Part shown: positions 39,977 through 58,064 of the stretch, in pieces
Layout: each line of letters opens with the position of its first letter
How positions within the stretch are numbered: the stretch's first letter is position 1
Virus record (IMG/VR): IMGVR_UViG_3300020465_001196
Direction: 5' to 3' (one strand)
DNA: 64,000 nt
Source: a virus
Taxonomy: Duplodnaviria; Caudoviricetes
Position numbers and translations under genes: made by a program
Notes under the pieces: generated by a model
Told to the model about the DNA's origin: nothing
The model's input: only the letters and a program-made list of their open reading frames with translations
The model's database searches: none

Positions 39977-41860
39977 TTATTTTTTAACTTCTTCAAAGTC
40001 TGCATCAACAACATTATCGTTGTTTTTAGTATCATTAGAAGTATTTTCTGATGTTTGCTGTTGTTGGTCTTTATACACAGCCTCTCCTAATTTCATTGCA
40101 GATTCAGTTAAAGATTTTACTTTATCATTAATATCTTGATTATTTTCAGATTTTAATGCTTCTTTTAATGCAGTAAGATCATCTTCAACTTTCTTTTTAT
40201 CTTCAACAGATAGTTTGTCGCCGTGTTCTTTAAGAGTTTTTTCAGTAGAATGTACTAATGTATCTGCTTGATTTCTAGTTTCTACTGTTTCTCTTTTTTG
40301 TTTGTCAGCTTCTTTGTTGGCTTCAGCGTCTTTAACCATTTGTTCAATGTCAGCATCACTTAATCCACCTGATGCTTGTATTTGTATCTTCTGTTCTTTG
40401 CCAGTGCCTTTATCTTTTGCACTAACATTTACGATACCATTAGCATCAATATCAAATGTTACTTCAATTTGAGGTACACCTCTTGGTGCAGATGCAATAC
40501 CTACCAAGTCAAAGTTACCTAGTAACTTATTATCAGCGGCCATTTCACGTTCACCTTGCATTACTCTAATAGTAACTGCCGTTTGACCATCATCAGCAGT
40601 TGAGAATACTTGACTTTTCTTTGTTGGAATAGTTGTATTCTTCTCAATTAGCTTCGTGCATACACCTCCAAGTGTTTCAATACCAAGTGATAACGGTGTT
40701 ACATCTAAAAGTAACACATCTTTAACATCACCTTGTAATACACCACCTTGAATTGCGGCTCCAATTGCTACTACTTCATCTGGATTTACACTTTTATTTG
40801 GTTCTTTACCAAAAAAGTCTTGAACTGCTTTTTGAACCTTAGGCATTCTTGTCATACCACCTACAAGAATAACTTCACTAATGTCTCCAGCACTAAATCC
40901 TGAATCTTTTAGAGCTTGTTTACATGGTTGTAAACTTTTATCAACTAAATGATCAACCAATGCTTCAAATTTAGCTCTTGTTAATTTAAGATTTAAATGT
41001 TTTGGTCCAGATTTGTCAGCAGTAATAAATGGTAAACTAATATCTGTTTGTGTTGCAGATGATAATTCACATTTTGCCTTTTCTGCCGCCTCTCTTACAC
41101 GTTGAAGTGCAAGATTATCATTTTTTAGATCTACACCTGAGTCTTTTTTGAACTCTGCTAGTATATAATCTACTAATGCATTGTCAAAATCTTCACCACC
41201 CAATGATGTATCACCATTTGTTGACTTAACTTCAAATACTCCGTCACCTATTTCTAAAATAGAAATATCAAAAGTACCCCCACCTAAGTCATATACAGCA
41301 ACCGTACCAGTTTTTTTCTTATCTAACCCGTAAGCAAGTGCCGCCGCAGTTGGTTCATTCACAATTCTTTCAACTTCAAGTCCTGCAATTTTACCTGCAT
41401 CTTTAGTTGCTTGTCTTTGTGAATCGTTAAAGTACGCAGGAACAGTAATAACCGCTTTAGTTACTTCTTGTCCTAAATACTTTTCTGCTGTTTCTTTCAT
41501 TTTTTGAAGAACGAAAGCCGAAATTTGTGATGGTGAGTATTTTTCGTTGTTAGCTTCTACCCAAGCATCTCCATTTTCCGCCTTTACAATTTTAAATGGT
41601 GATGTCTGTATGTCTTTTTGTACAGAATCTCCATCAAATTTTCTTCCTATTAAACGTTTAGAAGCAAAAACCGTATTAGTAGGATTTGTAACAGCCTGTC
41701 TTTTTGCTGGTGTACCTACTAATTGTTCATCTCCAAACGATACTACAGATGGTGTTGTTCTAGTACCTTCTGCATTTTCTATAACTTTGGCTCCCTTACC
41801 TTCCATAATGGATACGCAAGAGTTTGTTGTACCTAAGTCAATACCAATTATTTTACTCAT
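39977..41860 (-). CDS. dnaK: Chaperone DnaK (Hsp70)
   Basis: [25 protein letters not shown] and alphaproteobacterial-style C-terminus [11 protein letters not shown]. Confidence 0.98.
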
Positions 41861-41888
41861 GGTTCTAATATATCTCCTTTCCTGTTAA

Positions 41889-42329
41889 TTACTTAATTTT
41901 GATAGTTCTTGGCTTTTTAGATTCTGGAATAATTCTTTCCAAAGAAACTTTAAGCAAACCATCTTTAAGTTCTGCACCTTTAACTTCAACATCATCTGAA
42001 ACAGTAAAAGATTTAGAAAACATTCTTTTTGAAATACCTCTATGAAGTACTGCATCGTTTTCTTGAACTTCTTCTGCTTTTTTGATTGATTTTACAGTTA
42101 AAACATTATTTTCGTATTCAACATCAATATCATCTTTGCTGAATCCTGCTAATGCTAATTCAATATCGTAGGTGTTTTCACCTGTCTTTACGATATTATA
42201 TGGTGGATAATTAACCTGTGGAATGTTCATAACGTCTCCGTCAAACATTCTTTCAAAGTGGTCAAATATATTATCGAACCCTACAGTTACTGGACGTAAC
42301 TGATTAAAAATAGATAGATTTCTAGTCAT
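41889..42329 (-). CDS. ibpA: Small heat-shock protein Hsp20/IbpA
   Basis: NYPPYNI, ALAGF, LHRGIS.R.F and LKDGLL. Start moved to the ATG at 42329 behind a GGAGG SD. Confidence 0.93.
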   Translation of the reverse strand: MTRNLSIFNQLRPVTVGFDNIFDHFERMFDGDVMNIPQVNYPPYNIVKTGENTYDIELALAGFSKDDIDVEYENNVLTVKSIKKAEEVQENDAVLHRGISKRMFSKSFTVSDDVEVKGAELKDGLLKVSLERIIPESKKPRTIKIK

Positions 42330-42332
42330 TTT

Positions 42333-42389
42333 AACTCCTCCTTTAAGCAAGTTTATATTTTATATGTAGACCCTATCATAGCAATCTAC
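42333..42389 (-). promoter_or_regulatory. ROSE-like RNA thermometer in the ibpA 5' UTR
   Basis: AACUUGCUU-AAAG-GAGGAGUU hairpin pairs UUGCU (bulged G) with the SD; a second upstream hairpin GUAGA..UCUAC. Confidence 0.6.
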
Positions 42390-42471
42390 ACACATATTTA
42401 TACAACTAATGTTGTACAATATATAATATAAGCACTTTTTTTAAAAAGTCAAGAGCCAAAATAGGATTTTT

Positions 42472-43524
42472 TTAAATTTCTTGAAATTTATAGCTCTGTC
42501 TGGCCGCATTATCGCCACATTGTTTAAAACACGTAGGATTATAATAGTTTGATTGTTGGCCATTCCAACTTTCATGTAACAAACGACTATAATATTTGTG
42601 TCCTAGTATTTCGTTCCAACTATGATGTTTTAAACTATTCCAATCATCACCAAATTGGTCAATTAACATATGAAAGTATTCGTGTTGTTCAAAATTTTCA
42701 GTAGCAAACCAACAGCATGGCCAAACTTTATAATTCCAATCTATAAACACAGTTTTGTCATGATACATTTTACAAGAAATACTTTTACCTTCTTTTTGAG
42801 TAACTTCAAATTTATCATTATATTTTGTTACTCCTGCTGTTTCTGGATGTTGGAATTTATCAGTTGTTTTTACTTCAAACTCTTTAGTTACTATTTTGCC
42901 TTCTTCTTTGATTTTACTTTTACTAAACCAACTACGATTATTTCGTACGTTTTGTCTTAACACAAATTTAATATCTAATTGCTCTGCTAATTTTTTTGCA
43001 TTATCTATATCATCATAATTATGATCAAAAACTAGGTATTCCCATTTACAAAGTCCCTTTGCTGTTGCATAAGCCGTCATATTTTCAACAACTTTCTTCC
43101 AATTAACATTTACTCTATATAAATGATTTGTATCTTTATAACCATCTACAGAAAAAACTACTAATAGTCGTTGAGATTCATTACTCATTTTTCCCATTTC
43201 TGCAAATGTTTCTTTAGTGTTTGCTCCTGTGTTTGTGTGCATTTCAATCGAACCGCCATTATCTAAAATATATTTTGTAATAGTAACAATATTTTTATTC
43301 ATAAATGGATCATCAACTGTACCACCAAAAATAAATTCTTTATCTGCTATTAGTTCTTTTGGAAATATATTAGAAAATTCTTCCAATGACCATTCAGTTA
43401 TATTTTGTTTTAAAAATGGATGTGTATCACCATCAACTGTACGGATACACCCTGGACATCTTGCGTTACACTTATTTGTAATTTCGACATCGAACTTTGT
43501 TATGTTATTAATACTAAATGACAT
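42472..43524 (-). CDS. Radical SAM protein with C-terminal twitch/SPASM domain
   Basis: CNARCPGC, GTVDDP, FSVDG and C-terminal CK...WPCCW...CFKQC. Confidence 0.9.
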   Translation of the reverse strand: MSFSINNITKFDVEITNKCNARCPGCIRTVDGDTHPFLKQNITEWSLEEFSNIFPKELIADKEFIFGGTVDDPFMNKNIVTITKYILDNGGSIEMHTNTGANTKETFAEMGKMSNESQRLLVVFSVDGYKDTNHLYRVNVNWKKVVENMTAYATAKGLCKWEYLVFDHNYDDIDNAKKLAEQLDIKFVLRQNVRNNRSWFSKSKIKEEGKIVTKEFEVKTTDKFQHPETAGVTKYNDKFEVTQKEGKSISCKMYHDKTVFIDWNYKVWPCCWFATENFEQHEYFHMLIDQFGDDWNSLKHHSWNEILGHKYYSRLLHESWNGQQSNYYNPTCFKQCGDNAARQSYKFQEI

Positions 43525-43528
43525 AGTA

Positions 43529-43762
43529 TCAATATTTATCGGATACTAATGATACTTCTTTTCCTGGTCCAGCTTTACTTGGTAAATCGCCAAATTCTTT
43601 AATATACAATTTAAGTACTTCTTTGTAAAAAATTGTTGAATCATGATTACATTTTTTATTAATTTCAGCCAGTCCATTATTTGTAGGTTCTAGATAACTT
43701 GCTAATACTTTTGCCGCTTCTGTTTGTAGTGTACGTAAATCTAATGTTTCTAAATCAATCAT
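43529..43762 (-). CDS. Hypothetical protein
   Basis: 77-aa ORF. Confidence 0.6.
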   Translation of the reverse strand: MIDLETLDLRTLQTEAAKVLASYLEPTNNGLAEINKKCNHDSTIFYKEVLKLYIKEFGDLPSKAGPGKEVSLVSDKY

Positions 43763-43763
43763 A

Positions 43764-44042
43764 TTACTTACTCAGTTTATCTATTACACGATCGTTTTCT
43801 GATATTCGTGTTTGTACTATAAAACCTTTTGCACCATTATATGGATTTTGCATATAAGTTTCATTTACCCAATAGTATTTAAACAAAATTATATCACCAT
43901 TATCAAGTTTAACAGGATACCAAGCAAAACGTCTTTTCCATCTTGAATTCCATTTTGGTAAACTATTCATTGTGCGATGTCTCCAATTTCCTATATAGTT
44001 GACATCTATAATTTGTATTTTTCTTGATAGCCACTGTAACAA
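43764..44042 (-). CDS. Hypothetical protein
   Basis: 92-aa ORF with a W...FAWYPV motif. Confidence 0.5.
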   Translation of the reverse strand: MLQWLSRKIQIIDVNYIGNWRHRTMNSLPKWNSRWKRRFAWYPVKLDNGDIILFKYYWVNETYMQNPYNGAKGFIVQTRISENDRVIDKLSK

Positions 44043-44062
44043 TTTTTTTCATACCTTTTTTC

Positions 44063-44139
44063 TGGCGGAGTGTAAGGGACTCGAACCCTCAACCTCCCGC
44101 GTGACAGGCGGGTGCTCTAACCAATTGAGCTAACACTCC
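44063..44139 (-). tRNA. tRNA-Asp(GTC)
   Basis: GGAGTGT/ACACTCC stem, anticodon arm CCCGC-CTGTCAC-GCGGG and encoded CCA; 77 nt. Confidence 0.97.
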
Positions 44140-44140
44140 A

Positions 44141-44216
44141 TGGTGGGTAGTAAAGGACTCGAACCTTTGACCCCCTCGGTGTAAACGAGGTGCTCTACCA
44201 ACTGAGCTAACCACCC
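44141..44216 (-). tRNA. tRNA-Val(TAC)
   Basis: GGGTGGT/ACTACCC stem, anticodon arm CCTCG-TTTACAC-CGAGG and encoded CCA; 76 nt. Confidence 0.97.
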
Positions 44217-44217
44217 A

Positions 44218-44294
44218 TGGTAGGCGATATAAGACTCGAACTTATGACCTTTCCGTTATCAACGGAATGCTCTAACCAACTGAGCTAATCGCCT
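44218..44294 (-). tRNA. tRNA-Ile(GAT)
   Basis: AGGCGAT/ATCGCCT stem, anticodon arm TTCCG-TTGATAA-CGGAA and encoded CCA; 77 nt. Confidence 0.97.
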
Positions 44295-44664
44295 ATAGTT
44301 CAATCTCTGTTAAGCCACGTTCTCTATTTAAAAACTTATACTCTACTTTAACAGGATCAAATTGTTTAATTTCTTCAAATATAACATCTGTTGGAAGTTC
44401 GCCACAAGTGTAAACATCAAGTTGTAATAAACCTGGATCTGTTTCATCCCAACAATGTAATGCTATATGTGATGTTTCGATAATTACCAAACCAGTTAAA
44501 CCTCTGTTGCCTGGCATATCTAAATATGTTGTAATAGGTCCTTGGCATATTTGCATACCAATTTTTGACACTAATTCTGTTAACCAAGTGTGAGCCCACT
44601 TTTGATTAGTAGGTGGCTTTTTAACTTCAGCCCTTACGATTAGATGTTTGTGTTGTACTGTCAT
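44293..44664 (-). CDS. speD: Pyruvoyl-dependent S-adenosylmethionine decarboxylase family protein
   Basis: HLIV, GLTGLVIIETSHIALHCW and LDVYTCG motifs. Confidence 0.85.
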   Translation of the reverse strand: MTVQHKHLIVRAEVKKPPTNQKWAHTWLTELVSKIGMQICQGPITTYLDMPGNRGLTGLVIIETSHIALHCWDETDPGLLQLDVYTCGELPTDVIFEEIKQFDPVKVEYKFLNRERGLTEIEL

Positions 44665-45415
44665 TTTTAAATACCGGTATTGGTTCCATTTTATGTAAAT
44701 TTGGTTTCCTTATCTTTTGATATTTATCGTAATATTCACTGTCTGGTCCATGTACCATTGCGTGTTCCATTTGCTCATATGACAGTCCATGTAGTTGATC
44801 TTTATCTGTTCTACCATCTTCCCACAAACCATCTGTAGGTTCAGCATCTATAATTTCTTGCAATACACCAAGATCTTTACCTAGTTGCCAAACTTCAGAT
44901 TTCATTAAATCTGCTATTGGAGAAATATCAACACCACCATCTCCATACTTTGTATAAAATCCTACTCCAAAATCTTCAACTTTATTTCCTGTGCCAACAA
45001 CAATACCTTTTTTAGCACTAGATATTTGATGTAGTGTAACCATTCTTAATCTTGATTTTGAATTTGCAAATGCCAGTTCACTACCATATTCATTAAATAG
45101 TTCTAACCAAAACTTATCGTAGACTTTATCTAAATCAATTATGTCGTGCTTTACATTATTAAACTTTTGTTCTAGCCATTCACCGTGTGCTATACTTAAA
45201 TCATGTTGTGATTCTATTTGTGCTATTGGCATTGAAATTGCATAAACAGGTAATTTTGTTTTTGCACATAAGGTACTTACTACTGCTGAATCTATTCCGC
45301 CTGATATTCCTACAACTAAAGACTTTCTATTATGAGCCAAGGCGTAGTCCTTGATCCACTTCGAAATCTTATCAATCATGATACTAACGTCTGCTTCGTT
45401 TAGGAGGTAATCCAA
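44627..45415 (-). CDS. nadE: NH3-dependent NAD+ synthetase
   Basis: GISGGIDSAVV, NSKSRLRM, GTGNKVE, GFYTKYGDGGVD..PI.DL.K and PTDGLW. Confidence 0.95.
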   Translation of the reverse strand: MDYLLNEADVSIMIDKISKWIKDYALAHNRKSLVVGISGGIDSAVVSTLCAKTKLPVYAISMPIAQIESQHDLSIAHGEWLEQKFNNVKHDIIDLDKVYDKFWLELFNEYGSELAFANSKSRLRMVTLHQISSAKKGIVVGTGNKVEDFGVGFYTKYGDGGVDISPIADLMKSEVWQLGKDLGVLQEIIDAEPTDGLWEDGRTDKDQLHGLSYEQMEHAMVHGPDSEYYDKYQKIRKPNLHKMEPIPVFKNDSTTQTSNRKG

Positions 45416-45707
45416 GCTCTTCTAATTTTCTATCTCTTCGAGCTCTTCTTATCGCGGCTTTTTTCGCTACTCTTTTCTTTTCAGAAGGTTTAACGTAATA
45501 TTTTCTATCACGAAGTTCTTGCATTATTCCTTCTTTCATTAGCATTTTTTTAAGACGTCTAATTGCTTTTTCAACATTATTGTCTTGAACTGCTACTGCC
45601 ATTCCTGGAAGTTTTTCGTATCTTGGTTTCTTATCTTTCCATTTTGGCTTATCGCTTTGAAATTTGCCGATTTCAAATGTTTTTCTTGGTTTTGAGTTAT
45701 ACTTCAT
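45384..45707 (-). CDS. rpsU: Ribosomal protein bS21 with N-terminal basic extension
   Basis: VAVQDNNVEKAIRRLKK...EGIMQELR.R.YYVKPSEKKR. Confidence 0.92.
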   Translation of the reverse strand: MKYNSKPRKTFEIGKFQSDKPKWKDKKPRYEKLPGMAVAVQDNNVEKAIRRLKKMLMKEGIMQELRDRKYYVKPSEKKRVAKKAAIRRARRDRKLEELGLPPKRSRR

Positions 45708-45737
45708 ATTATTATAATAACATCATTTAGATTATTG

Positions 45738-46292
45738 TCAAGCATTTTTTTTATCAATTGCTTTAGTAACTGTAGCAATAATTTTATTACCAAATTGTTT
45801 TGGAGGCGAATCAAACTTACCTTGATTTAATTGGCCAGAAATCATAAGTTTAAACTGATCTATAAATATTGGTCCGTTACCAATTTCTCTTCCTCTAAGT
45901 TTCATAACCATTTTAACTTTATCACCATCATCAATAAATTCTTGCACTTTTTTTAATTTAACATTTAGATCATGAACATCTGTTCCAGGACGTAATTGTA
46001 CTTCATGTAAATCAATACGATTTTCTCTTTCTTTTTTCTTTTTTTCTTTATCTGCTTTTTGTTTTTCGTAATTCCATTTACCAAAATCCATAACACGACA
46101 AACTGGTGGATCTGCCTTTTGAGCAATACAAATTAAATCTAGCCCTGCTTCTCTTGCCTTTTGCTGTGCTTCTTGATTCCTTACTATTCCTATAAAATCA
46201 CCATTTGGATCAATTAACCTAATAGTAGGAAAAGTGATTGCAGAATTTAATAAAACAGATGGTTTATTTTTTTTAAAAAATGGTTTTCTCAC
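45738..46292 (-). CDS. infC: Translation initiation factor IF3
   Basis: IRLID..G, GLDLICIA..ADPPVCRVMDFGK..YE and EVQLRP..D.HDL..K...F...GDKVK...RGRE. Confidence 0.93.
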   Translation of the reverse strand: MRKPFFKKNKPSVLLNSAITFPTIRLIDPNGDFIGIVRNQEAQQKAREAGLDLICIAQKADPPVCRVMDFGKWNYEKQKADKEKKKKERENRIDLHEVQLRPGTDVHDLNVKLKKVQEFIDDGDKVKMVMKLRGREIGNGPIFIDQFKLMISGQLNQGKFDSPPKQFGNKIIATVTKAIDKKNA

Positions 46293-47581
46293 TACGCCCC
46301 GTTCTTTTTATCTACTTCTTTATAAATCAACATAGGTGGTTTATTTTTAGTAATAAAAGTTTCATTTATAGCAATACGTTCTACACCTTGTTCTTTTAAC
46401 ATAGGTAATTCATATTGTAATTGCAATAGATGTTTTTCTAAAACTGATCTCAATCCCCTTGCACCAATATCTTTCTCTAATGCTAAATCACAAACAATGT
46501 CAACAGCATCTTCACTGAACTCTAATTCTATTCCATCTAGTTGGAACATTTTTTGAAATTGTTTTAGTATTGCACTTTTTGGTTTAACAAGTATATCTTT
46601 TAAATCTTGTTTTTGTAATTTATGACAAGCAACCACTACTGGCAATCTACCTACCATTTCTGGTATTAAACCAAATTTAACAATATCATCTGGTTCAACT
46701 TTTTCTAGTGATTGTTCAAACTCTTTTTCTGAAACTACAGAAGCACCAAATCCAATTGATGTATTCATGTTTAATCTTTTTCTTATAATGTCATCTAATC
46801 CAACAAACGCACCACCAACTACAAATAATATGTTTGTTGTGTCTACACTAATCATATCTTGTTGTGGGTGCTTTCTACCGCCTCCTGGTGGAACTCTAAC
46901 TACTGTTCCTTCAAGTAATTTCAATAATGCTTGTTGTACACCTTCTCCTGATACATCTCTTGTAATTGATGTATTTTCAGACTTACGTGATTTTTTATCT
47001 ATTTCATCTATATAAACTATACCTTTTTCTGCACGTTCAACATCAAAGTCACAACTTTGTAAAAGTCTTAAAATAATGTTTTCAACATCGTCACCTACAT
47101 ACCCTGATTCAGTTAATGTTGTTGCATCTGCTTGAGCAAAAGGCACATCTAAATAATCTGCTATTTTTTTAGCAAGTAATGTTTTACCACAACCACTTGG
47201 ACCAACTAGTAGTACATTTGATTTTTCTAACTCAACACCATCTACTACAGGATTTGCTAATCTTTTATAATGATTATATACTGCTACACTTAAAACTTTT
47301 TTTGCTTGTTCTTGTCCAATAACGTGTTCATCAAGATGTGCTTTTAATTCATCTGGTACTATTTTTTTTAATTCTTGTGAATCTTTTTCAATTGCTCTTA
47401 CTTCACTTTCTTCTAAAATTGAATGACACAAATCAATACATTCATTACAAATATATACTTTAGGCCCAGCAATTAATTTTTTTACTTTTTCTCTTGTTTT
47501 ACCACAAAATGAACAGGTAAATTGATCGTCTTTTTTCTTAACCATTATTTTTCTTTCTTTGTTGAGCAAAGAGATGAACAT
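46292..47581 (-). CDS. clpX: ATP-dependent Clp protease ATP-binding subunit ClpX
   Basis: Zinc domain CSFC/CNEC, Walker [32 protein letters not shown] loop and IGF loop. Confidence 0.97.
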
Positions 47582-48854: not shown

Positions 48855-50249
48855 TTATCCTTTTTTTTTCTCAGTGCTGTCGTCAGTATCAATTTTGGCA
48901 GTTTCGTCTATGTTGATAACCAACTTTTCTGGTTTATCCTGCTCTAAACTTTTTTGATAATCTAACTGTTCTTGTAATTCTTTTTCTGCTTCAGATAATT
49001 TTTCACCAAATTCTTTTATTTCTTGTTCATGCCTTTTTTTTAGATCATTTATTTCTTGTTCATTATTATTTTCTTCAGGTTGTTTTTTTGGTGCTTCACC
49101 TGTGTATGCTTTTATTAATTCAGGATCATACTCATATTGTTTTTCAAATCCTCTTCCAAATCTTCTAATAAATGACATATTAGCCGCTACTAATAAACAT
49201 ACTGCTAGTGGATCAAATACAAATATAATTGTAATAATAACCCAACGTACTGCTTCTTCTAACAAATTTTTATCTGCTTCTTGACCGTATATAAATTCTG
49301 CAATATATTTCAATGGACCAACTTCTACTTCAAGTTTTTGCTGTTCCATTACAATAATAATTTTATCTTCATTTACTTGATTTAATGCATCTTGTTCTTT
49401 TTCAATGAATATTTCTAACTCATCAATTCTTACATCAATATTTTCTGTTTTAACGTTTGCTTCTGATCTTAAACCTGTAATTGTAGCATTAATATCTTCA
49501 ATTTGTGATGAATATTTTTCATCAACTTTTGTAAGATTTTCTTGTAATTTATTTTGTATTTCTACAATAATTCGCTGTGCCGCAGATGCTACTGCAAGTT
49601 CATTTGCTTTAGCTTCTGCTATTGCTGTATCTAACTTCTTCTTACTAAAAGAACCTTTAAATCTTTCTTGTGCCGCGGCAATATCTGCTTCTTTACGTTC
49701 TTTTGCTTGAGCAAGTCTATTATTTTGTATTTCAATATCTTTGTCTGCTTGAACTCTTAAAGTATTCTTTTCTTCTTTAATTCTTTCGTATAATACTGCT
49801 AGTTCTTCATTTTGCTTGTCAATTAAAATATCAACACGAACATTCTGTCCACTGTTAAGTCTTGCAATTTCATCTGACCATCTAGTAATTTTGTTTTCTG
49901 ATCTTATAATTTTTTCATTTATATTATCTAACTTAACTTGTTGAGTTGATCCTAATGATGATTGTTCAACGTGTGCTTTAGATAAAAATCCAAATATACC
50001 CATTGATGTAATAAGCATTAATACAACAACTGCTATTGATAGATACGTTTTAATTGCGAGACCTGCCGCCTTCCAGTTTTGATATAACCAAGAGGCTGTA
50101 ACTAATTTACCTACTTCAAGTACAGTACCCATAATCATAATAGGAATTGCGGCCGCGGCAAAAATAGCCGCCAACCCTGCAATTGAATAGTAAATTGCTA
50201 CCGCTGAAATACTTAATGCGGTCAATAATGTTAGTATTGCCATAAACAT
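48855..50249 (-). CDS. Multi-TM coiled-coil membrane protein (conserved in T4-like phages)
   Basis: N-terminal TM helices with LEVGKL and SMGIFGFLSKAH, a long coiled coil and IIFVFDPLAV. Confidence 0.75.
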   Translation of the reverse strand: MFMAILTLLTALSISAVAIYYSIAGLAAIFAAAAIPIMIMGTVLEVGKLVTASWLYQNWKAAGLAIKTYLSIAVVVLMLITSMGIFGFLSKAHVEQSSLGSTQQVKLDNINEKIIRSENKITRWSDEIARLNSGQNVRVDILIDKQNEELAVLYERIKEEKNTLRVQADKDIEIQNNRLAQAKERKEADIAAAQERFKGSFSKKKLDTAIAEAKANELAVASAAQRIIVEIQNKLQENLTKVDEKYSSQIEDINATITGLRSEANVKTENIDVRIDELEIFIEKEQDALNQVNEDKIIIVMEQQKLEVEVGPLKYIAEFIYGQEADKNLLEEAVRWVIITIIFVFDPLAVCLLVAANMSFIRRFGRGFEKQYEYDPELIKAYTGEAPKKQPEENNNEQEINDLKKRHEQEIKEFGEKLSEAEKELQEQLDYQKSLEQDKPEKLVINIDETAKIDTDDSTEKKKG

Positions 50250-51835: not shown

Positions 51836-52054
51836 TTACTTATGTGGGTCAAAATCCTTTGTTATATTGGATTCTTTCCCTCTTAAGTAGTGTTTAGATG
51901 GTTCGTAGGATAACCATCTTTTGAACTTTTTCACCTGATCCGACTGGTCGGCTGGCTCTTTCAACGATCTTTGCTGTTTACTAAACACAGCATTGAGCAT
52001 TAAGATCCCGTCGCCCATGGATCTAAATATTTTTTCCATAGACTTATACTCCAA
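51836..52054 (-). CDS. Hypothetical protein (doubtful; may instead be structured RNA)
   Basis: 72-aa ORF with a TTG start in a hairpin-rich, GC-richer stretch. Confidence 0.35.
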   Translation of the reverse strand: MEYKSMEKIFRSMGDGILMLNAVFSKQQRSLKEPADQSDQVKKFKRWLSYEPSKHYLRGKESNITKDFDPHK

Positions 52055-52137: not shown

Positions 52138-52158
52138 AAAAAGAAGCCTATAATAGGC
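52138..52158 (-). terminator. Possible intrinsic terminator downstream of rplK
   Basis: GCCTA-TTA-TAGGC followed by TTCTTTTT. Confidence 0.4.
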
Positions 52159-52271
52159 CAAATTTTAAATCCAAAATTGTCAAGACTATATTAATAGATT
52201 TATTCGAAAACAAATTATTTCAAAAATGCTGATATGCAAATAATACATAACAAAATTATTTTGCTATGCGT

Positions 52272-52694
52272 TTATTTTACAACTTCAATACTCATTGATC
52301 GACATGAACCTTCAACTTGCTTCATTGCTTGTTCTACTGTAAAAGCATTCATATCTACCATTTTCTTTTCAGCTATTTCTTTTACTTGAGCTTTGGTGAT
52401 TCGCTTTATTATCGAACGACCAGGTGTTCTTCCACCCTTTTTTAAACCAACGGCTTTAAGTATGAAATAAGAAACAGGAGGTTGTTTTAGCTCAAAGTCA
52501 AAGGACTTGTCCTTATATACCTTAATAGTAACTGGTATTGGACCTTCAAGAGATTTTGTTTTATCATTAAACTTCTTACAGAAGTCCATGATATTCACAC
52601 CTCTTTGTCCTAGAGCTGGTCCTACCGGTGGGGCAGGTTTGGCTTGTCCGGCTTGAATCTGTAACTTAATTAAGCCAACAACTTCTTTTGCCAT
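52272..52694 (-). CDS. rplK: Ribosomal protein uL11
   Basis: [44 protein letters not shown] and G.CRSM. Confidence 0.96.
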
Positions 52695-52705
52695 AAGTCT
52701 CCTTT

Positions 52706-52975
52706 TTATTGTGCTGGTGTATTATCAGCAGGTGCTTCGTTAGATGCTTCTGCAGACGCTTCACCAGGTGTTTCTAATAACTTTAATCCAGTAGCAACCG
52801 GTTTGCCATTATGCTCTTTAACTTCGTACTCAAGAGCTTGACCTTGGTCTACTTTTGTAATGTTTGCTTCTTTAAAAGCAGTAACATGAACAAAAACATC
52901 TTTGCCACCATCATCTGGTACTATGAATCCAAAACCTTTTGCTCCATTATACCATTTTAGTTTACCTGTACTCAT
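52706..52975 (-). CDS. cspA: Cold-shock protein
   Basis: [15 protein letters not shown] (RNP1) and DVFVHVTA (RNP2), with an acidic C-terminal tail. Confidence 0.92.
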
Positions 52976-52985
52976 TTGGTCTCCT

Positions 52986-53243
52986 TTATGTCCTATTAAT
53001 ATTTATAGAGGATGACTCGCCTCTATTCTTGTTGTAATATACCTTGTAAGCACCACCAGTTGGTAGCAACTCACAGGATTTCAACTTTGGATTTGTATCA
53101 ACCCAATGTTGGAATTCTTCTTGCATTTTACCTTTGCCTGTAATAACTGTTACGTATTTCATATCTTTACTATCATCAATAAATTTTTTAAATTCTTCCC
53201 AAGCCTCGTGTATGTAATAACCATGTAAATCTAATATTGGCAT
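52986..53243 (-). CDS. Stand-alone Smr domain protein
   Basis: LDLHG, VITGKG and GGA..V motifs. Confidence 0.85.
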   Translation of the reverse strand: MPILDLHGYYIHEAWEEFKKFIDDSKDMKYVTVITGKGKMQEEFQHWVDTNPKLKSCELLPTGGAYKVYYNKNRGESSSININRT

Positions 53244-53246
53244 ACA

Positions 53247-55316
53247 CTATTTGTTTGCTCCTACTATTTCTTCTTGTACGTTACTTGGTACAATTTCATA
53301 ACTATTAAATTCCATGCTGTATGACGCTCTACCGCTTGTTAAAGAACGTAAATTACCAACATAACCAAACATAGATGCTAATGGAACTAGTGCATCTAAT
53401 ACTAAACCATTACCTCTTGGTTCTTGTCCTCTAATCTGTCCTCTACGTGAACTTAAATCACCTATTACATCTCCTAAATATTCTTCAGGTGTAATAACTT
53501 CTACTTTCATCATAGGTTCTAATAATACTGGGCCTGCTTGTTTTATGCCTTCCCTAAAAGCGGCTCTTGCCGCAATTTCAAATGCAATTGCTGATGAATC
53601 AACGTCGTGATATTTTCCATCTAGCAATGTTACTTTATAATCTACTGTTGGCCATCCTGCTAATACTCCTGAATAACCTTGTGTTTTAAATCCATCTTCT
53701 ACTGATGGTATAAATTCTTTTGGCACGTTACCACCTTTAATTTCATCTGTAAATGAATAACCATCACCACGTTCACCTGGTTCAATATTACAAACAATAT
53801 GTGCAAACTGTCCTGAACCACCTGATTGTTTTTTGTGTGTGTAAGTTACTTCATATGATTTTGTTATTGTTTCTCTATAAGCAACTTGTGGTTTACCAAT
53901 ATTAGCACCAACTTTAAATTCTCTTTTCATTCTGTCAACAATAATTTCTAAATGCAACTCACCCATTCCACTTAAAATTGTTTGACCTGTTTCTTGATCT
54001 GTTTTAACTCTTAAACTTGGATCTTCTTGTACAAACTTACCAAGTGCTTCTCCCATTTTTTCTTGGTCGTCTTTTGTTTTTGGTTCTACTGCAATATCAA
54101 TAACTGGTTCTGGGAATACCATACGTTCTAATACTACTTCACTATCTTGTGCAACTAGTGTATCACCAGTTGTAACATTTTTTAATCCTACAAATGCAAT
54201 AATGTCACCAGCTTGAATACTTTTTACTTCTTCTTTAGAGTCGGCGTGCATTTCATATATTCTACCAATACGTTCTTTTTCATCTCTTGTTGAGTTATAA
54301 AGTGTATCTCCTGAACTTGCTTTACCACTATATACTCTAGCAAATGTTAATGCACCATATTTGTCATTAATAATTTTAAATGCTAATGCACTAAATGGTA
54401 GTGATGGATCTGATTTAATTGGATCTTTTTGTTCACCGTTTTCATCTATAGACCATATTGCATCAACTTCAGTTGGTGCAGGCAGATAACTTACTACAGC
54501 ATCTAGTAATGGTTGTACACCTTTGTTTTTAAATGCACTTCCACAAAGTACTGGAACAAAGTCAAATGCAACTGTACCTTTTCTAATACAAGATTTAATT
54601 TGCTCTACTGTAGGTTCAGTTCCTTCTAAATATAATTCCATAATTGCTTCATCTTGTTCAACTACAGTATCAATTAATTCTGTTCTATACTTTTCAGCAT
54701 CAGCTTTCATATCTTCTGGAATTTCTTGTTCACTAAATGAAGCACCTAGTTGCTCACCGTCCCAAACTATTGCTTTCATAGTAACTAAATCTACAATACC
54801 TTTTAAATTAGATTCTGCTCCAATTGGTAATGTTAAGATAACCGGTGATGCTCCTAATCTTTCTTTGATCATATCAACACATCTTAAAAAGTCAGCCCCT
54901 GTTCTATCAAGTTTGTTTACAAAACAAAGTCTTGGAACTCTATATTGGTCTGCTAAACGCCAGTTTGTTTCTGATTGTGGTTCTACACCTGCTACACCAT
55001 CAAATACTACAACAGCACCATCAAGTACTCTTAATGATCTGTTTACTTCAATGTTAAAGTCAATGTGACCTGGTGTATCAATAATATTAATTCTGTGATC
55101 ATCCCAAAAAACTGTAGTTGCCGCGGATGTAATTGTTATACCACGTTCTTGTTCTTGTTCCATGTAATCCGTTGTCGCGGCCCCATCATGAACTTCACCA
55201 ATTTTATGTGATTTTCCTGTGTAATATAGTATCCGTTCTGTCGTTGTTGTTTTACCAGCATCAACGTGTGCTATAATACCTATATTTCTATATCTATTTA
55301 AATCTTTTATATTCAT
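53247..55316 (-). CDS. fusA: Elongation factor G
   Basis: [45 protein letters not shown] and YHDVDSS; full length at 689 aa. Confidence 0.98.
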
Positions 55317-55343
55317 TTGTATTAAGTATGTAGTTTACTCTAT

Positions 55344-55754
55344 TTATATTTTACCTTCTTTAATCAGCCTCTTACGATTGCTTAAATGCATTTTTTGTAT
55401 ATCATCTTTACTCTGTCCATTGTACACTACTGCATAGCCTTCGTCAACCATTTTCTGATTAATTGTGGTTTTATCATATATAAACTCTCCCAATATACGA
55501 CCAAACTTACCTGTTTTGTCTTTATGGGTTCTTAATACTGCTGATGATCCCACTGGATAGTGGGTTTTTAAATAATTTTTTGATAATATTCCAAATTTCT
55601 TTTCTTCTTTATCACGTGTTCTAGATTCTGGAGTATCTATTCCTAGTAATCTAACACGTTCTTTGTGCATCCATGTACCAAATCCTAGATCTACATCTAC
55701 GTCAACGGTATCACCATCCACTATTCTAAGTATTTTACATCTATATTCGTACAT
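55344..55754 (-). CDS. Thermonuclease (SNase-like) family protein
   Basis: VDGDT, RVRLLGIDTPE and GKFGRIL. Confidence 0.9.
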   Translation of the reverse strand: MYEYRCKILRIVDGDTVDVDVDLGFGTWMHKERVRLLGIDTPESRTRDKEEKKFGILSKNYLKTHYPVGSSAVLRTHKDKTGKFGRILGEFIYDKTTINQKMVDEGYAVVYNGQSKDDIQKMHLSNRKRLIKEGKI

Positions 55755-55761
55755 TTATTTT

Positions 55762-55944
55762 TTAATTAATTTGTGCTAACTGTTGGTTATTTTCAATATG
55801 TAATATTTTGTCTTTAATCCAAAGTTTTCTTTTTTTCATTACTGTGAGCTTAACTTCATCATCACCATTTGTTGTTAATTTTTCAATCGCAATGTGTAAT
55901 CTTGCGTGTTCGTCCTTTAGTTGTTCTAATTCACCATTTACCAT
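55762..55944 (-). CDS. YdcH/DUF465-like small coiled-coil protein
   Basis: L..EH..L...I...MKKRKLWIKDKI. Confidence 0.7.
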   Translation of the reverse strand: MVNGELEQLKDEHARLHIAIEKLTTNGDDEVKLTVMKKRKLWIKDKILHIENNQQLAQIN

Positions 55945-56700: not shown

Positions 56701-56735
56701 ACTATAATATTACTATATTTTTTAGTAAAAGTCAA

Positions 56736-58021: not shown

Positions 58022-58064
58022 AATAAATAATACTATATTTTATGGTATTTAGTCAAGGATAATT

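Follow-up and report, generated by a model that had tools for sequence, protein, structure and literature searches.

The stretch of viral DNA analysed here, termed the window, is the 64,000-nt IMG/VR record IMGVR_UViG_3300020465_001196 (Duplodnaviria; Caudoviricetes). Four contiguous open reading frames on its minus strand (positions 52272-55316) encode, in order of descending coordinates, elongation factor G (EF-G), a Smr protein, a cold-shock-domain (CSD) protein and ribosomal protein uL11. None of rpsL, rpsG, tuf or rplA adjoins these genes in the window, and the contiguity of fusA, smr, csp and rplK that an earlier note on this DNA had described is confirmed by the open reading frames. The coordinates of the cluster, its neighbours and the promoter-like and terminator-like elements are collected in Table 1.

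Table 1. Genes and sequence elements in and around the EF-G-Smr-CSD-uL11 cluster.
Feature	Position	Strand	Basis or remark
DUF465 (YdcH-like) small protein, 60 aa	55762..55944	-	PF04325, E 1.2e-9; conserved left border of the variable slot
SNase-like (staphylococcal nuclease) endonuclease, 136 aa	55344..55754	-	PF00565, E 3.7e-16; phrog_452 'endonuclease', E 2e-36
TATAAATA motif (T4 late-promoter consensus)	55341..55348	-	24 nt before the EF-G ATG; overlaps the SNase stop codon
fusA, full-length elongation factor G, 689 aa	53247..55316	-	TIGR00484; five domains; collinear with 6not
Minimal Smr-domain (SMR) nuclease, stand-alone, 85 aa	52986..53243	-	PF01713; fold matches
Second TATAAATA motif	53000..53007	-	24 nt before the CSD ATG, inside the Smr 3' end; same spacing in L001
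Cold-shock-domain protein, 89 aa, acidic Ala-rich C-terminal tail	52706..52975	-	PF00313
rplK, ribosomal protein uL11, 140 aa, both domains canonical	52272..52694	-	TIGR01632; alignment to 1mms and 1mj1
Terminator-like hairpin and T-run	52145..52159	-	Consensus scan; ~110 nt after the uL11 stop codon
Small conserved ORF, no known family	51836..52054	-	Likely start ATG 52039, 67 aa
IF3	45738..46292	-	IF3_N, E 3e-26; IF3_C, E 3.5e-17; 6 kb downstream, same strand
bS21 with N-terminal extension of ~37 aa	45384..45707	-	PF01165, E 3.6e-18 over residues 38-90

Features of the encoded proteins

EF-G scores 1070.9 bits against TIGR00484 (equivalog cut-off 659.4), and the Pfam domains GTP_EFTU, EF-G_D2/GTP_EFTU_D2, EFG_III, EFG_IV and EFG_C all exceed their cut-offs, which gives the five-domain architecture G, II, III, IV and V. 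Its sequence runs collinear with that of the EF-G structure 6not (960 bits). Alignment to this structure bears out the earlier observation that the G1-G5 nucleotide-binding motifs are all intact, including the switch II histidine and SAFK. Ribosome-dependent GTPase activity and translocation may be expected of the phage EF-G, the one indirect pointer being its dN/dS of 0.075.

At sites where alphaproteobacterial EF-Gs are near-invariant, the phage protein has 14 changes; cellular EF-Gs of this class have a median of 1 such deviation and at most 10. Nine of the 14 (M15I, I18V, M49T, W51Y, V85I, T88N, E92N, V118N and Q121L) fall within residues 1-125, near the nucleotide pocket and the switches, where they lie beside the P-loop and in switch I, switch II and helix 3; only one falls in domain V. 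This clustering in the G domain is non-random (Fisher p 0.014). The changes near the nucleotide pocket could reflect a modified instead of a merely supplementary function.

The Smr protein scores 40.1 bits against PF01713 (gathering threshold 25.7). The motifs DLHG, TVITGxGK and GAYxVxY are invariant in eight orthologues, the catalytic DxH and the GxG loop are kept, and dN/dS is 0.10-0.21. Foldseek matches 1-11 of an AF2 model (pLDDT 74) in the PDB are all Smr domains (TM 0.63-0.76), and the model superposes on the Smr domains of SmrB and MutS2 solved on disomes, with a TMq of 0.72 on SmrB in disome structure 7qgr. A single-sequence PDB search returned spurious crystallin matches, which profile and fold searches resolved to Smr.

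The phage protein shares the SMR fold, DxH and GxG with E. coli SmrB, but is only 77-85 aa long and has no N-terminal extension, as it begins 2-4 residues before DLHG. In SAR11 Smr proteins, which are 37-42% identical to it over ~37 residues, the N-terminus is extended by ~45-55 aa that include a D-x-K-D-W motif. Ribosome binding by SmrB requires its N-terminal, uS2-binding hook, and SMR-only SmrB binds no ribosomes (10.1101/2021.08.16.456513). Since the phage Smr lacks such a hook, the role at collided ribosomes that the earlier note assigned to it is unsupported. That proposal is further weakened by the oldest genomic partner of Smr, which is a nuclease, SNase, and not a translation gene.

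The CSD protein matches PF00313 (71.2 bits, E 6.5e-20), and its best solved match is the alphaproteobacterial Csp 2lss. In common with CspA/CspE-type Csp and phage Csp (phrog_729), it has a single CSD with RNP1 (KGFGFI) and RNP2 (VFVHV), both of which align with CspA and 2lss. It differs from CspA/CspE-type proteins in its variable acidic C-terminal tail and in falling under every NCBIfam Csp equivalog cut-off (best 67.3 bits vs 120 for CspE). A strong SD (AAGGAG) precedes its ATG, and its dN/dS is 0.14-0.28.

uL11 scores 187.9 bits against TIGR01632 (equivalog cut-off 141.85). Its domains PF03946 (N-terminal) and PF00298 (RNA-binding) are both full length, and an alignment to solved L11 structures (1mms and 1mj1) spans the entire protein. 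The conserved Pro-rich motif of the N-domain is present and canonical, as the earlier note had recognised. The C-terminus, which the same note had called divergent, aligns end to end with Thermotoga L11 IEGTAKSMGIEVV and forms a canonical rRNA-binding helix, and that description was mistaken. Of the columns with 90% or higher conservation in cellular L11, only three are changed in the phage clade (N19K, E37D and A131C). Virtually all residues conserved in cellular L11 are thus kept in the rRNA-binding domain and in the factor-binding one, as a ribosomal function would predict; such a function would place the protein at H43/H44 of the 50S subunit. The gene is preceded by a strong SD, and dN/dS values are 0.028 and 0.12.

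Genomic context and order of acquisition

The order EF-G, Smr, CSD and uL11 recurs in the independent marine assemblies L001, L147, L148 and L149. A complete, syntenic relative, G005, has a genome of 328,149 bp with direct terminal repeats (CheckV 100% complete) and a T4 Gp23 capsid match (E 6e-97); genome-level statements made here rest on this close relative. Ribosomal proteins and EF-G commonly serve as markers of cellular contamination, and most EF-G, DnaK and L11 matches in 'phage' records are mislabelled or contaminated cellular contigs. One example is L002 (EF-G 60% identical), in which a cellular rpsL-rpsG-fusA stretch lies beside phage tail genes and which was used as an outgroup only. 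The frameshift-ridden long-read contig L142 was left out of interpretation.

For the present cluster, however, the junctions are seen in at least five independent assemblies, including the terminally repeated 328-kb genome with its T4 capsid gene. Both flanks are phage backbone, and the encoded proteins form phage-only clades that are 62-68% identical to the nearest cellular homologues. The same gene order in independent assemblies and in a complete T4-like relative establishes that the cluster is phage DNA, neither a chance arrangement nor a chimera. The concern of the earlier note that the contig might be cellular or chimeric is already refuted by the recurrence, the flanks and the phage-only clades, and an artefact retains a negligible probability. 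The phage is an uncultured marine T4-like jumbo phage. In DNA sequence, its RNR genes in the window share ~73% identity with those of Pelagibacter phage HTVC008M. The host is probably a marine alphaproteobacterium of the SAR11 neighbourhood with low GC and a small genome.

Upstream of the cluster, the SNase is 97% identical to the L001 copy (dN/dS 0.047), and the DUF465 gene is likewise found upstream in L001, L006, L131, L132, L135, L137 and L147-L149. Downstream, the small conserved ORF is 91% identical in L006 and 74-83% identical in L001 (dN/dS ~0.2), with no Pfam or PHROG match. The genes for IF3 and bS21 are both present in G005 too.

With 6 copies found against 14.7 expected, the TATAAATA motif is depleted in the window, and five of the six are closely followed by a start on their own strand. 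Relatives have kept the motif: it precedes EF-G in L001, L137 and L147, whereas in the EF-G-less L006, L131-L133 and L135 it precedes Smr. As in a T4-type late unit, a copy stands close upstream of the first gene, and both copies listed in Table 1 are putative promoters. Scans of the window for sigma-70-type promoters and for terminators gave counts not above chance. A contig from an RNA library spans the terminator-like hairpin at 52145..52159, so that termination at this element, if any, is leaky or unproven.

Comparison of relatives reveals the order in which the locus was assembled. L138-L141, which have the same ferredoxin...PTPS...ClpX backbone, carry SNase-Smr only; in the distant relatives L138-L140 SNase overlaps Smr, and CSD, uL11 and EF-G are absent. 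L131-L133 and L135 hold SNase-Smr-CSD-uL11, and L006 holds Smr-CSD-uL11, all with no adjacent EF-G; a search of the 65-kb L006 record for translational GTPases found none. L137 carries EF-G, as does the window group. A 4-nt overlap between Smr and CSD is seen in most relatives. The motif TATAAATA heads Smr in genomes that lack EF-G and heads EF-G where it is present. SNase-Smr is thus the oldest pair, and CSD and uL11 were added behind Smr. EF-G was inserted last, in one shallow sublineage only, directly after the conserved TATAAATA motif.

Origin, selection and expression

Phylogenies of EF-G and uL11 with host homologues, an analysis that the earlier note had proposed, yielded phage-only clades within or next to marine Alphaproteobacteria and SAR11. 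The EF-G clade sits inside Alphaproteobacteria on a stem of 0.82 subs/site and is weakly placed (support 82) as sister to the AG-325-B13-type SAG clade. In the uL11 tree, phage clade A (support 100/99) is sister to SAR11 plus phage clade B. AU tests did not reject a common origin for both phage uL11 clades (p 0.14), and they did not reject a grouping with AG-325-B13-type alphaproteobacteria either (p 0.42). On these phylogenetic grounds, EF-G and uL11 are both assigned to marine low-GC Alphaproteobacteria of the SAR11 neighbourhood.

Purifying selection acts on every gene of the cluster (dN/dS 0.03-0.28). The cluster genes are also covered by marine metatranscriptome contigs of three studies, which bridge uL11-CSD, CSD-Smr and Smr-EF-G, although DNA carry-over is possible and these contigs give no strand or 5' ends. 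RNA depth was also high over conserved EF-G segments; this signal stems from cellular EF-G transcripts, matched at 90% likeness, and was set aside. The earlier reading of the cluster as genuine phage translation genes holds: the genes are real, under selection and all oriented the same way, and a conserved late-promoter-like motif stands in front of them.

The wider theme of phage-made ribosome parts also stands, with bS21 and IF3 encoded in the window and bL12, bL31 and bL33, together with bS21 and IF3, in G005. In G005, uL1, uL10, bL32, S1, RRF and HPF were not found, and the single GTP_EFTU match is EF-G, hence there is no tuf. An Rfam search of the window returned tRNAs only, with no leader or riboswitch near rplK. 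Candidate host genomes each contain one RelA/SpoT homologue, G005 contains none, and no HPF over the cut-off was found in the candidate hosts. The idea that EF-G, IF3 and RRF split idle ribosomes and so wake a hibernating pool was rejected for the lack of RRF and HPF in G005 and of HPF in these hosts.

Role of the phage-encoded translation genes

The best reading of the cluster is that it probably supplies exchangeable ribosome parts and factors that sustain translation late in infection; ribosome incorporation, expression timing and benefit to the phage are the inferred elements of this reading. An old nuclease pair, SNase-Smr, occupied one genomic slot, to which a CSD RNA chaperone and a host-derived uL11 were added behind Smr. 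A host-derived EF-G was then inserted in one shallow sublineage, directly after the late-promoter-like TATAAATA heading the unit, so that the four proteins (EF-G, Smr, CSD and uL11) are probably produced jointly in the late phase of infection. The most likely mechanism would be supply and replacement, in which phage uL11, bL12, bL31, bL33 and bS21 exchange onto host ribosomes and phage EF-G and IF3 add factor capacity. Enrichment of exchangeable ribosomal proteins in viruses has been reported, as has the entry of phage-encoded bS21 and bL12 into E. coli ribosomes (PMC6375957). The Csp would keep mRNA free of structure, and the mini-Smr more probably cuts host or early RNA or DNA together with SNase than acts as an SmrB-type collision sensor. 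Together, the exchanged proteins, the added factors and the Csp would let translation continue in a slow-growing host with few ribosomes once the expression of host genes has been shut down.

The earlier note proposed instead that a co-adapted uL11 and EF-G act at the GTPase-associated centre, that Smr cleaves mRNA at collided ribosomes and that an altered uL11 blunts RelA activation. The lineage does encode uL11, bL12 and EF-G, which interact physically at this centre; EF-G was inserted in the same late unit as uL11; its G-domain changes are clustered; Smr keeps its catalytic DxH and superposes on disome-bound Smr domains; and the RelA/SpoT homologue of each candidate host has no counterpart in G005. 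The model is nevertheless unlikely. A matched L11/EF-G pair is not supported, because uL11 occurs with no adjacent EF-G in most relatives (L006, L131-L133 and L135), is solitary in a second T4-like phage group and has almost no lineage-specific change, whereas EF-G is a late arrival in a shallow sublineage. Only three such changes are seen in uL11, and its canonical, RelA-relevant Pro-rich N-domain argues mildly against a blunted stringent response. The single EF-G change in domain V, the hookless Smr and the precedence of SNase-Smr over every translation gene at the locus also count against this model. A further reading, in which the phage rebuilds the GTPase-associated centre with its own uL11 and bL12, plus a switch-diverged EF-G in one sublineage, and so insulates virocell elongation and recycling from host control, such as (p)ppGpp/RelA signalling or a hypothetical EF-G-targeting defence, is decidedly speculative.

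Insensitive phage EF-G, and perhaps uL11, might alternatively replace host versions that are inactivated during infection, for example when (p)ppGpp inhibits translational GTPases, or through modification by toxins or cleavage in abortive infection. The long EF-G stem, the excess of deviations over any cellular alphaproteobacterial EF-G, their crowding around the nucleotide pocket beside intact catalytic motifs, the strong purifying selection and the RelA/SpoT of candidate hosts are all consistent with such counter-defence. It is doubtful all the same, as the EF-G changes are mostly conservative, uL11 is nearly unchanged, and no defence system targeting EF-G or uL11 is known for the candidate hosts. 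Accelerated change after transfer into a phage is, moreover, common and needs no special explanation. An extraribosomal role, in which Smr, CSD and uL11 form an RNA-binding and RNA-cleaving set that regulates phage or host mRNAs (cf. T4 RegB with S1), is very improbable. Smr-CSD-uL11 is an invariant core whose members all bind nucleic acid, the Smr and CSD genes overlap, and the nucleases SNase and Smr flank the set. Against this, uL11 retains nearly all conserved residues of its rRNA-binding and factor-binding domains, as a ribosomal function predicts, and a second phage lineage keeps uL11 alone.

Phage-encoded ribosomal proteins and translation factors are already known. Mizuno et al. described virus-encoded ribosomal proteins such as the bS21 of HTVC008M and phage bL12, which share with the present case a host-derived, peripheral and exchangeable character, aquatic phages, purifying selection and a SAR11-like donor (2019; PMC6375957). 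In that study, by contrast, more than 99% of contigs had a single ribosomal protein, and the main text names uL11 only as the stalk partner of bL12; the present lineage has at least five ribosomal proteins, EF-G and IF3, with uL11 in a conserved Smr-CSD-uL11 cluster. The Microcystis jumbo phage PhiMa05 (MaAM05; PMC13157829) encodes uL11 among six ribosomal proteins, and its uL11 is the only isolated-phage match to the window uL11 in the phage collection (H67, 49.6% identity). There, however, uL11 lies next to uL1 as a cellular operon fragment of Vampirovibrionia-like origin, with no EF-G reported, whereas the present phage has no uL1, an alphaproteobacterial origin and different neighbours.

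As the earlier note stated, EF-G is known from huge phages, where its proposed role is keeping translation efficiency (PMC7162821). Al-Shayeb et al. found EF-G, IF3, S21 and L7/L12 in phages >200 kb, as in the present lineage (2020; PMC7162821). The huge-phage EF-Gs (H12-H17) are, however, only 48-51% identical to that of the window and belong to unrelated phage clades, L11 is not mentioned in the main text of that study, and the present phage is T4-like. uL11 itself is documented in one cultured phage only and was noted once in a marine survey, and the literature search found no paper on a conserved Smr-CSD-uL11 core with later EF-G insertion.

Phages of the G005-type lineage are cosmopolitan in ocean metagenomes. 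With at least five ribosomal proteins (uL11, bL12, bL31, bL33 and bS21), EF-G and IF3, G005 comes close to the published record of six. Pipelines that drop viral bins with more than one ribosomal protein (e.g. PMC9123017) would remove such phages, and the frequency of phages with multiple ribosomal proteins is therefore probably underestimated. The relatives of the window provide a rare stepwise record of translation genes accumulating at one promoter-headed slot. As uL11, bL12 and EF-G meet at one ribosomal site, the lineage is a concrete case in which the tailoring of a single functional centre of the ribosome by a virus can be tested.

The cluster and its phage setting

EF-G (fusA), Smr, a cold-shock-domain (CSD) protein and uL11 (rplK) are encoded by four contiguous open frames on the minus strand of the window, an observation of the earlier note that ORF calls and family and domain matches bear out. 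The intergenic gaps are 3, 10 and 11 nt, and strong AAGGAG-type Shine-Dalgarno sequences precede CSD and uL11. As that note also saw, no rpsL, rpsG, tuf or rplA adjoins the cluster in the window; its neighbours are an SNase-type nuclease, a DUF465 protein and a small ORF. The small ORF is conserved at the protein level (91% identity in the related contig L006; dN/dS about 0.2).

Coordinates of the features discussed (window, unless the complete relative genome G005 or contig L152 is named)
Feature	Location	Strand	Details
uL11	52272-52694	-	140 aa; TIGR01632 188 bits (cut-off 142); both domains
CSD protein	52706-52975	-	89 aa; PF00313 E 6.5e-20
Smr	52986-53243	-	85 aa; PF01713 40 bits (cut-off 25.7)
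EF-G	53247-55316	-	689 aa; TIGR00484 1071 bits (cut-off 659); 5/5 EF-G domains
SNase-type nuclease	55344-55754		upstream of EF-G
DUF465 protein	55762-55944		upstream of EF-G, beyond SNase
Small conserved ORF	51836-52054	-	67 aa; downstream, between rplK and PTPS/queD-like gene
464-aa ORF	48855-50249		
Sigma-70-like pairs	58027-58056 and 56707-56735	-	TTGACT...TATTAT/TAATAT
Proteostasis and translation neighbourhood	39977-47581	-	DnaK, HSP20, radical-SAM gene, tRNA-Asp/Val/Ile, SAM decarboxylase, NAD synthase, bS21, IF3, ClpX on one strand
IF3	45738-46292		
bS21	45384-45707		
bL12	G005 C1:141618-141824; ORF at L152:1930-2328		full-length, 132 aa
bL31	G005 C1:122685-122888		
bL33	G005 C1:327240-327395		
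bS21	G005 C1:275501-275656		
uL11	G005 C1:268839-269258		

The phage origin of the cluster is confirmed. Gene order around it is the same in L001, the IMG/VR contig of a close relative, whose complete genome record G005 (328,149 bp, direct terminal repeats, CheckV 100% complete) has a T4 Gp23 capsid match (E 6e-97). Contigs from separate Tara and ENA assemblies (L147-L149) also show the full order DUF465-SNase-EF-G-Smr-CSD-uL11. Both cellular contamination and chimeric assembly are ruled out. The window itself has a GC content of 31.5%, codes almost entirely on one strand, and carries six tRNAs, RNR, an ATP-dependent DNA ligase, many radical-SAM enzymes, DnaK, ClpX, HSP20, IF3 and bS21; its RNR genes share ~73% DNA identity with those of Pelagibacter phage HTVC008M. 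On the IMG/VR 'viral' contig L002, phage tail genes stand directly beside a cellular rpsL-rpsG-fusA operon; this contig probably represents the edge of a prophage, or else a chimera, rather than a case of phage EF-G.

Assembly, origin and expression of the cluster

Relatives at increasing distance differ in arrangement. L138-L141, which have the ferredoxin...PTPS...ClpX backbone in common with the window and an Smr ~38% identical, hold only an overlapping SNase-Smr pair; CSD, uL11 and EF-G are absent from this locus. DUF465, a ~240-aa ORF, SNase, Smr, CSD and uL11 are found in L131, L132, L133 and L135; DUF465, a 233-aa ORF, Smr, CSD and uL11 in L006; DUF465, EF-G, Smr and CSD in L137; and the full set in the window, L001 and L147-L149. 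Smr-CSD-uL11 is therefore the invariant core, usually with a 4-nt overlap of Smr and CSD among relatives, and the variable slot lies between DUF465 and Smr. The best-supported reading of these gene orders is that SNase-Smr is an older nuclease pair around which the cluster was assembled stepwise. EF-G is, on the same comparison, the last arrival, limited to a shallow sublineage: its phage copies form three protein clusters of 88-96% identity, and identity then falls to 69%. A search of the L006 record (65 kb, a genome fragment) found no translational GTPase. In a second group of T4-like marine phages (gp13, gp15 and sheath genes; L007-L013, L150, L151), uL11 is solitary, with a dNMP-kinase-like gene on one side and the tail sheath gene on the other.

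The motif TATAAATA, the consensus of T4 late promoters, is rarer in the window than expected (6 copies vs 14.7), and five of the six copies precede a start on their own strand by 5-44 nt. One stands 24 nt ahead of EF-G and another 24 nt ahead of CSD. In EF-G-less relatives the motif is 13 nt ahead of Smr; in EF-G-bearing genomes it lies just past the SNase stop, 23-24 nt ahead of EF-G, and Smr follows EF-G without a new copy. EF-G was therefore inserted right behind an existing promoter-like element, so that it now heads the unit; that the motif acts as a promoter is inferred.

Synonymous divergence from L001 is 0.30-0.43 across the SNase-EF-G-Smr-CSD block, 1.39 for uL11 and 0.57-1.07 for most flanking genes; the 464-aa ORF (0.41) is the sole other tested gene as low as the block. 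This low divergence suggests that the block (within 52272-55754) was recently exchanged by recombination between phage lineages. Nei-Gojobori dN/dS of window genes against L001 and L006 was 0.028 and 0.12 for uL11, 0.21 and 0.10 for Smr, and 0.28 and 0.14 for CSD, with values of 0.047 for SNase and 0.075 for EF-G.

Phylogenies of EF-G and L11, as proposed in the earlier note, point to low-GC marine alphaproteobacteria as donors, which the trees indicate can be assigned no more finely. The best 80 cellular EF-G matches are nearly all from Alphaproteobacteria (62-68% identity). A long stem (0.82 substitutions per site) leads to the phage EF-G clade, which falls outside Pelagibacterales, itself a well-supported clade, and has AG-325-B13-type marine single-cell genomes as its weakly supported (82) sister. 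In the uL11 tree, SAR11 and phage clade B together form the sister group (92/88) of phage clade A (100/99), and uL11 of the second T4-like group is sister to SAR11 uL11. In AU tests on uL11, one shared phage origin (p 0.14) could not be rejected, nor could placement with AG-325-B13 (p 0.42). These assignments do not depend on the unpublished genome G045. The phage host is probably also a low-GC marine alphaproteobacterium.

The cluster region is present in marine metatranscriptome libraries of three studies. One 2170-nt contig, identical to the window, runs from PTPS through the small ORF, uL11, CSD and Smr into the 3' end of EF-G; in the other two studies, contigs join uL11 to CSD and CSD to Smr. 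The pattern is consistent with co-transcription, although the contigs carry no strand or transcript ends and may reflect DNA carry-over. A terminator-like hairpin lies 3' of uL11; such sites are no commoner than chance, and one RNA-library contig runs across it. Upstream of the cluster, two sigma-70-like pairs stop 5-6 nt short of an ATG, one that of the ferredoxin gene and the other that of a 163-aa ORF, which suggests leaderless early transcripts.

Residues and predicted functions

The G1-G5 motifs of EF-G are complete, as previously described, by motif check and by alignment to a solved alphaproteobacterial-type EF-G, with which the protein is collinear. Among 285 near-invariant columns of 60 cellular sequences, 14 are altered in all three phage sequences (cellular median 1, alphaproteobacterial maximum 10). 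Nine of these fall between residues 1 and 125 (Fisher p 0.014), on either side of the P-loop and within both switch regions (I and II) and helix 3 (M15I, I18V, M49T, W51Y, V85I, T88N, E92N, V118N, Q121L); only Q661S falls in domain V, which faces uL11. The catalytic motifs are unaltered, and the clustered G-domain changes are worth biochemical testing.

The uL11 C-terminus, formerly called divergent, aligns end-to-end with Thermotoga L11 and is canonical. Only N19K, E37D and A131C separate the phage clade from 39 cellular L11 sequences at columns conserved at >=90%, and uL11 is essentially canonical. The CSD protein keeps RNP1 and RNP2 and is nearest to alphaproteobacterial Csp.

Smr consists of the SMR domain alone, with DLHG, TVITGxGK and GAYxVxY invariant in 8/8 orthologues. 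Its AF2 model (pLDDT 74) has only Smr domains as top PDB fold matches, including SmrB and MutS2 on disomes. SmrB requires an N-terminal hook that binds uS2, and a construct reduced to the SMR domain fails to attach to ribosomes (10.1101/2021.08.16.456513). In SAR11, the Smr proteins (137-148 aa as open frames) have an N-terminal extension with a D-x-K-D-W motif, whereas phage Smr has none and is 37-42% identical to them over only ~37 residues.

The earlier note's observations largely stand, its phage assignment stands in full, and its functional account stands only in part. Comparative and residue data do not support three of the possible roles it names: a co-adapted uL11/EF-G pair, collision rescue by Smr and a blunted stringent response. 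uL11 and EF-G co-occur in the window, L001 and L147-L149, but L131-L133, L135 and L006 have uL11 without EF-G at the locus.

Ribosomal complement of the lineage

In the window, IF3 and bS21 adjoin ClpX, three tRNAs, HSP20 and DnaK. The complete G005 genome also has IF3, and EF-G is its single translational GTPase; searches of it for uL1, uL10, bL32, S1, RRF, HPF and RelA/SpoT found none. By the G005 searches, at least five ribosomal proteins (uL11, bL12, bL31, bL33 and bS21) are encoded in this lineage, and every one is of a peripheral, exchangeable type; uL11, bL12 and EF-G meet at the GTPase-associated centre.

Mizuno et al. found mostly a single ribosomal protein per viral contig, with bS21, bL31 and bL33 enriched in aquatic viruses; they list bS21, bL31, bL33, bL12 and bL9 as dynamic and exchangeable, and their main text names uL11 solely as a stalk partner (PMC6375957). 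Huge phages with EF-G, IF3, S21 and L7/L12 were described by Al-Shayeb et al. (PMC7162821), and Luo et al. retained a single viral population carrying L11 (PMC7174320). No PHROGs v4 family matches this uL11 or Smr protein, and no description of the Smr-CSD-uL11 core or its EF-G-bearing form was found in the literature. According to its methods, a study that binned marine jumbo phages dropped bins in which two or more ribosomal proteins were present (PMC9123017), a filter that would have removed phages like this one. With at least five ribosomal proteins, EF-G and IF3, G005 comes near PhiMa05, whose six ribosomal proteins, uL11-uL1 among them, are the largest number published for a virus (PMC13157829). 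For the cluster as a whole, the best-supported reading is that its products are expressed late and serve to supply and replace ribosome parts of exchangeable types, together with translation factors.
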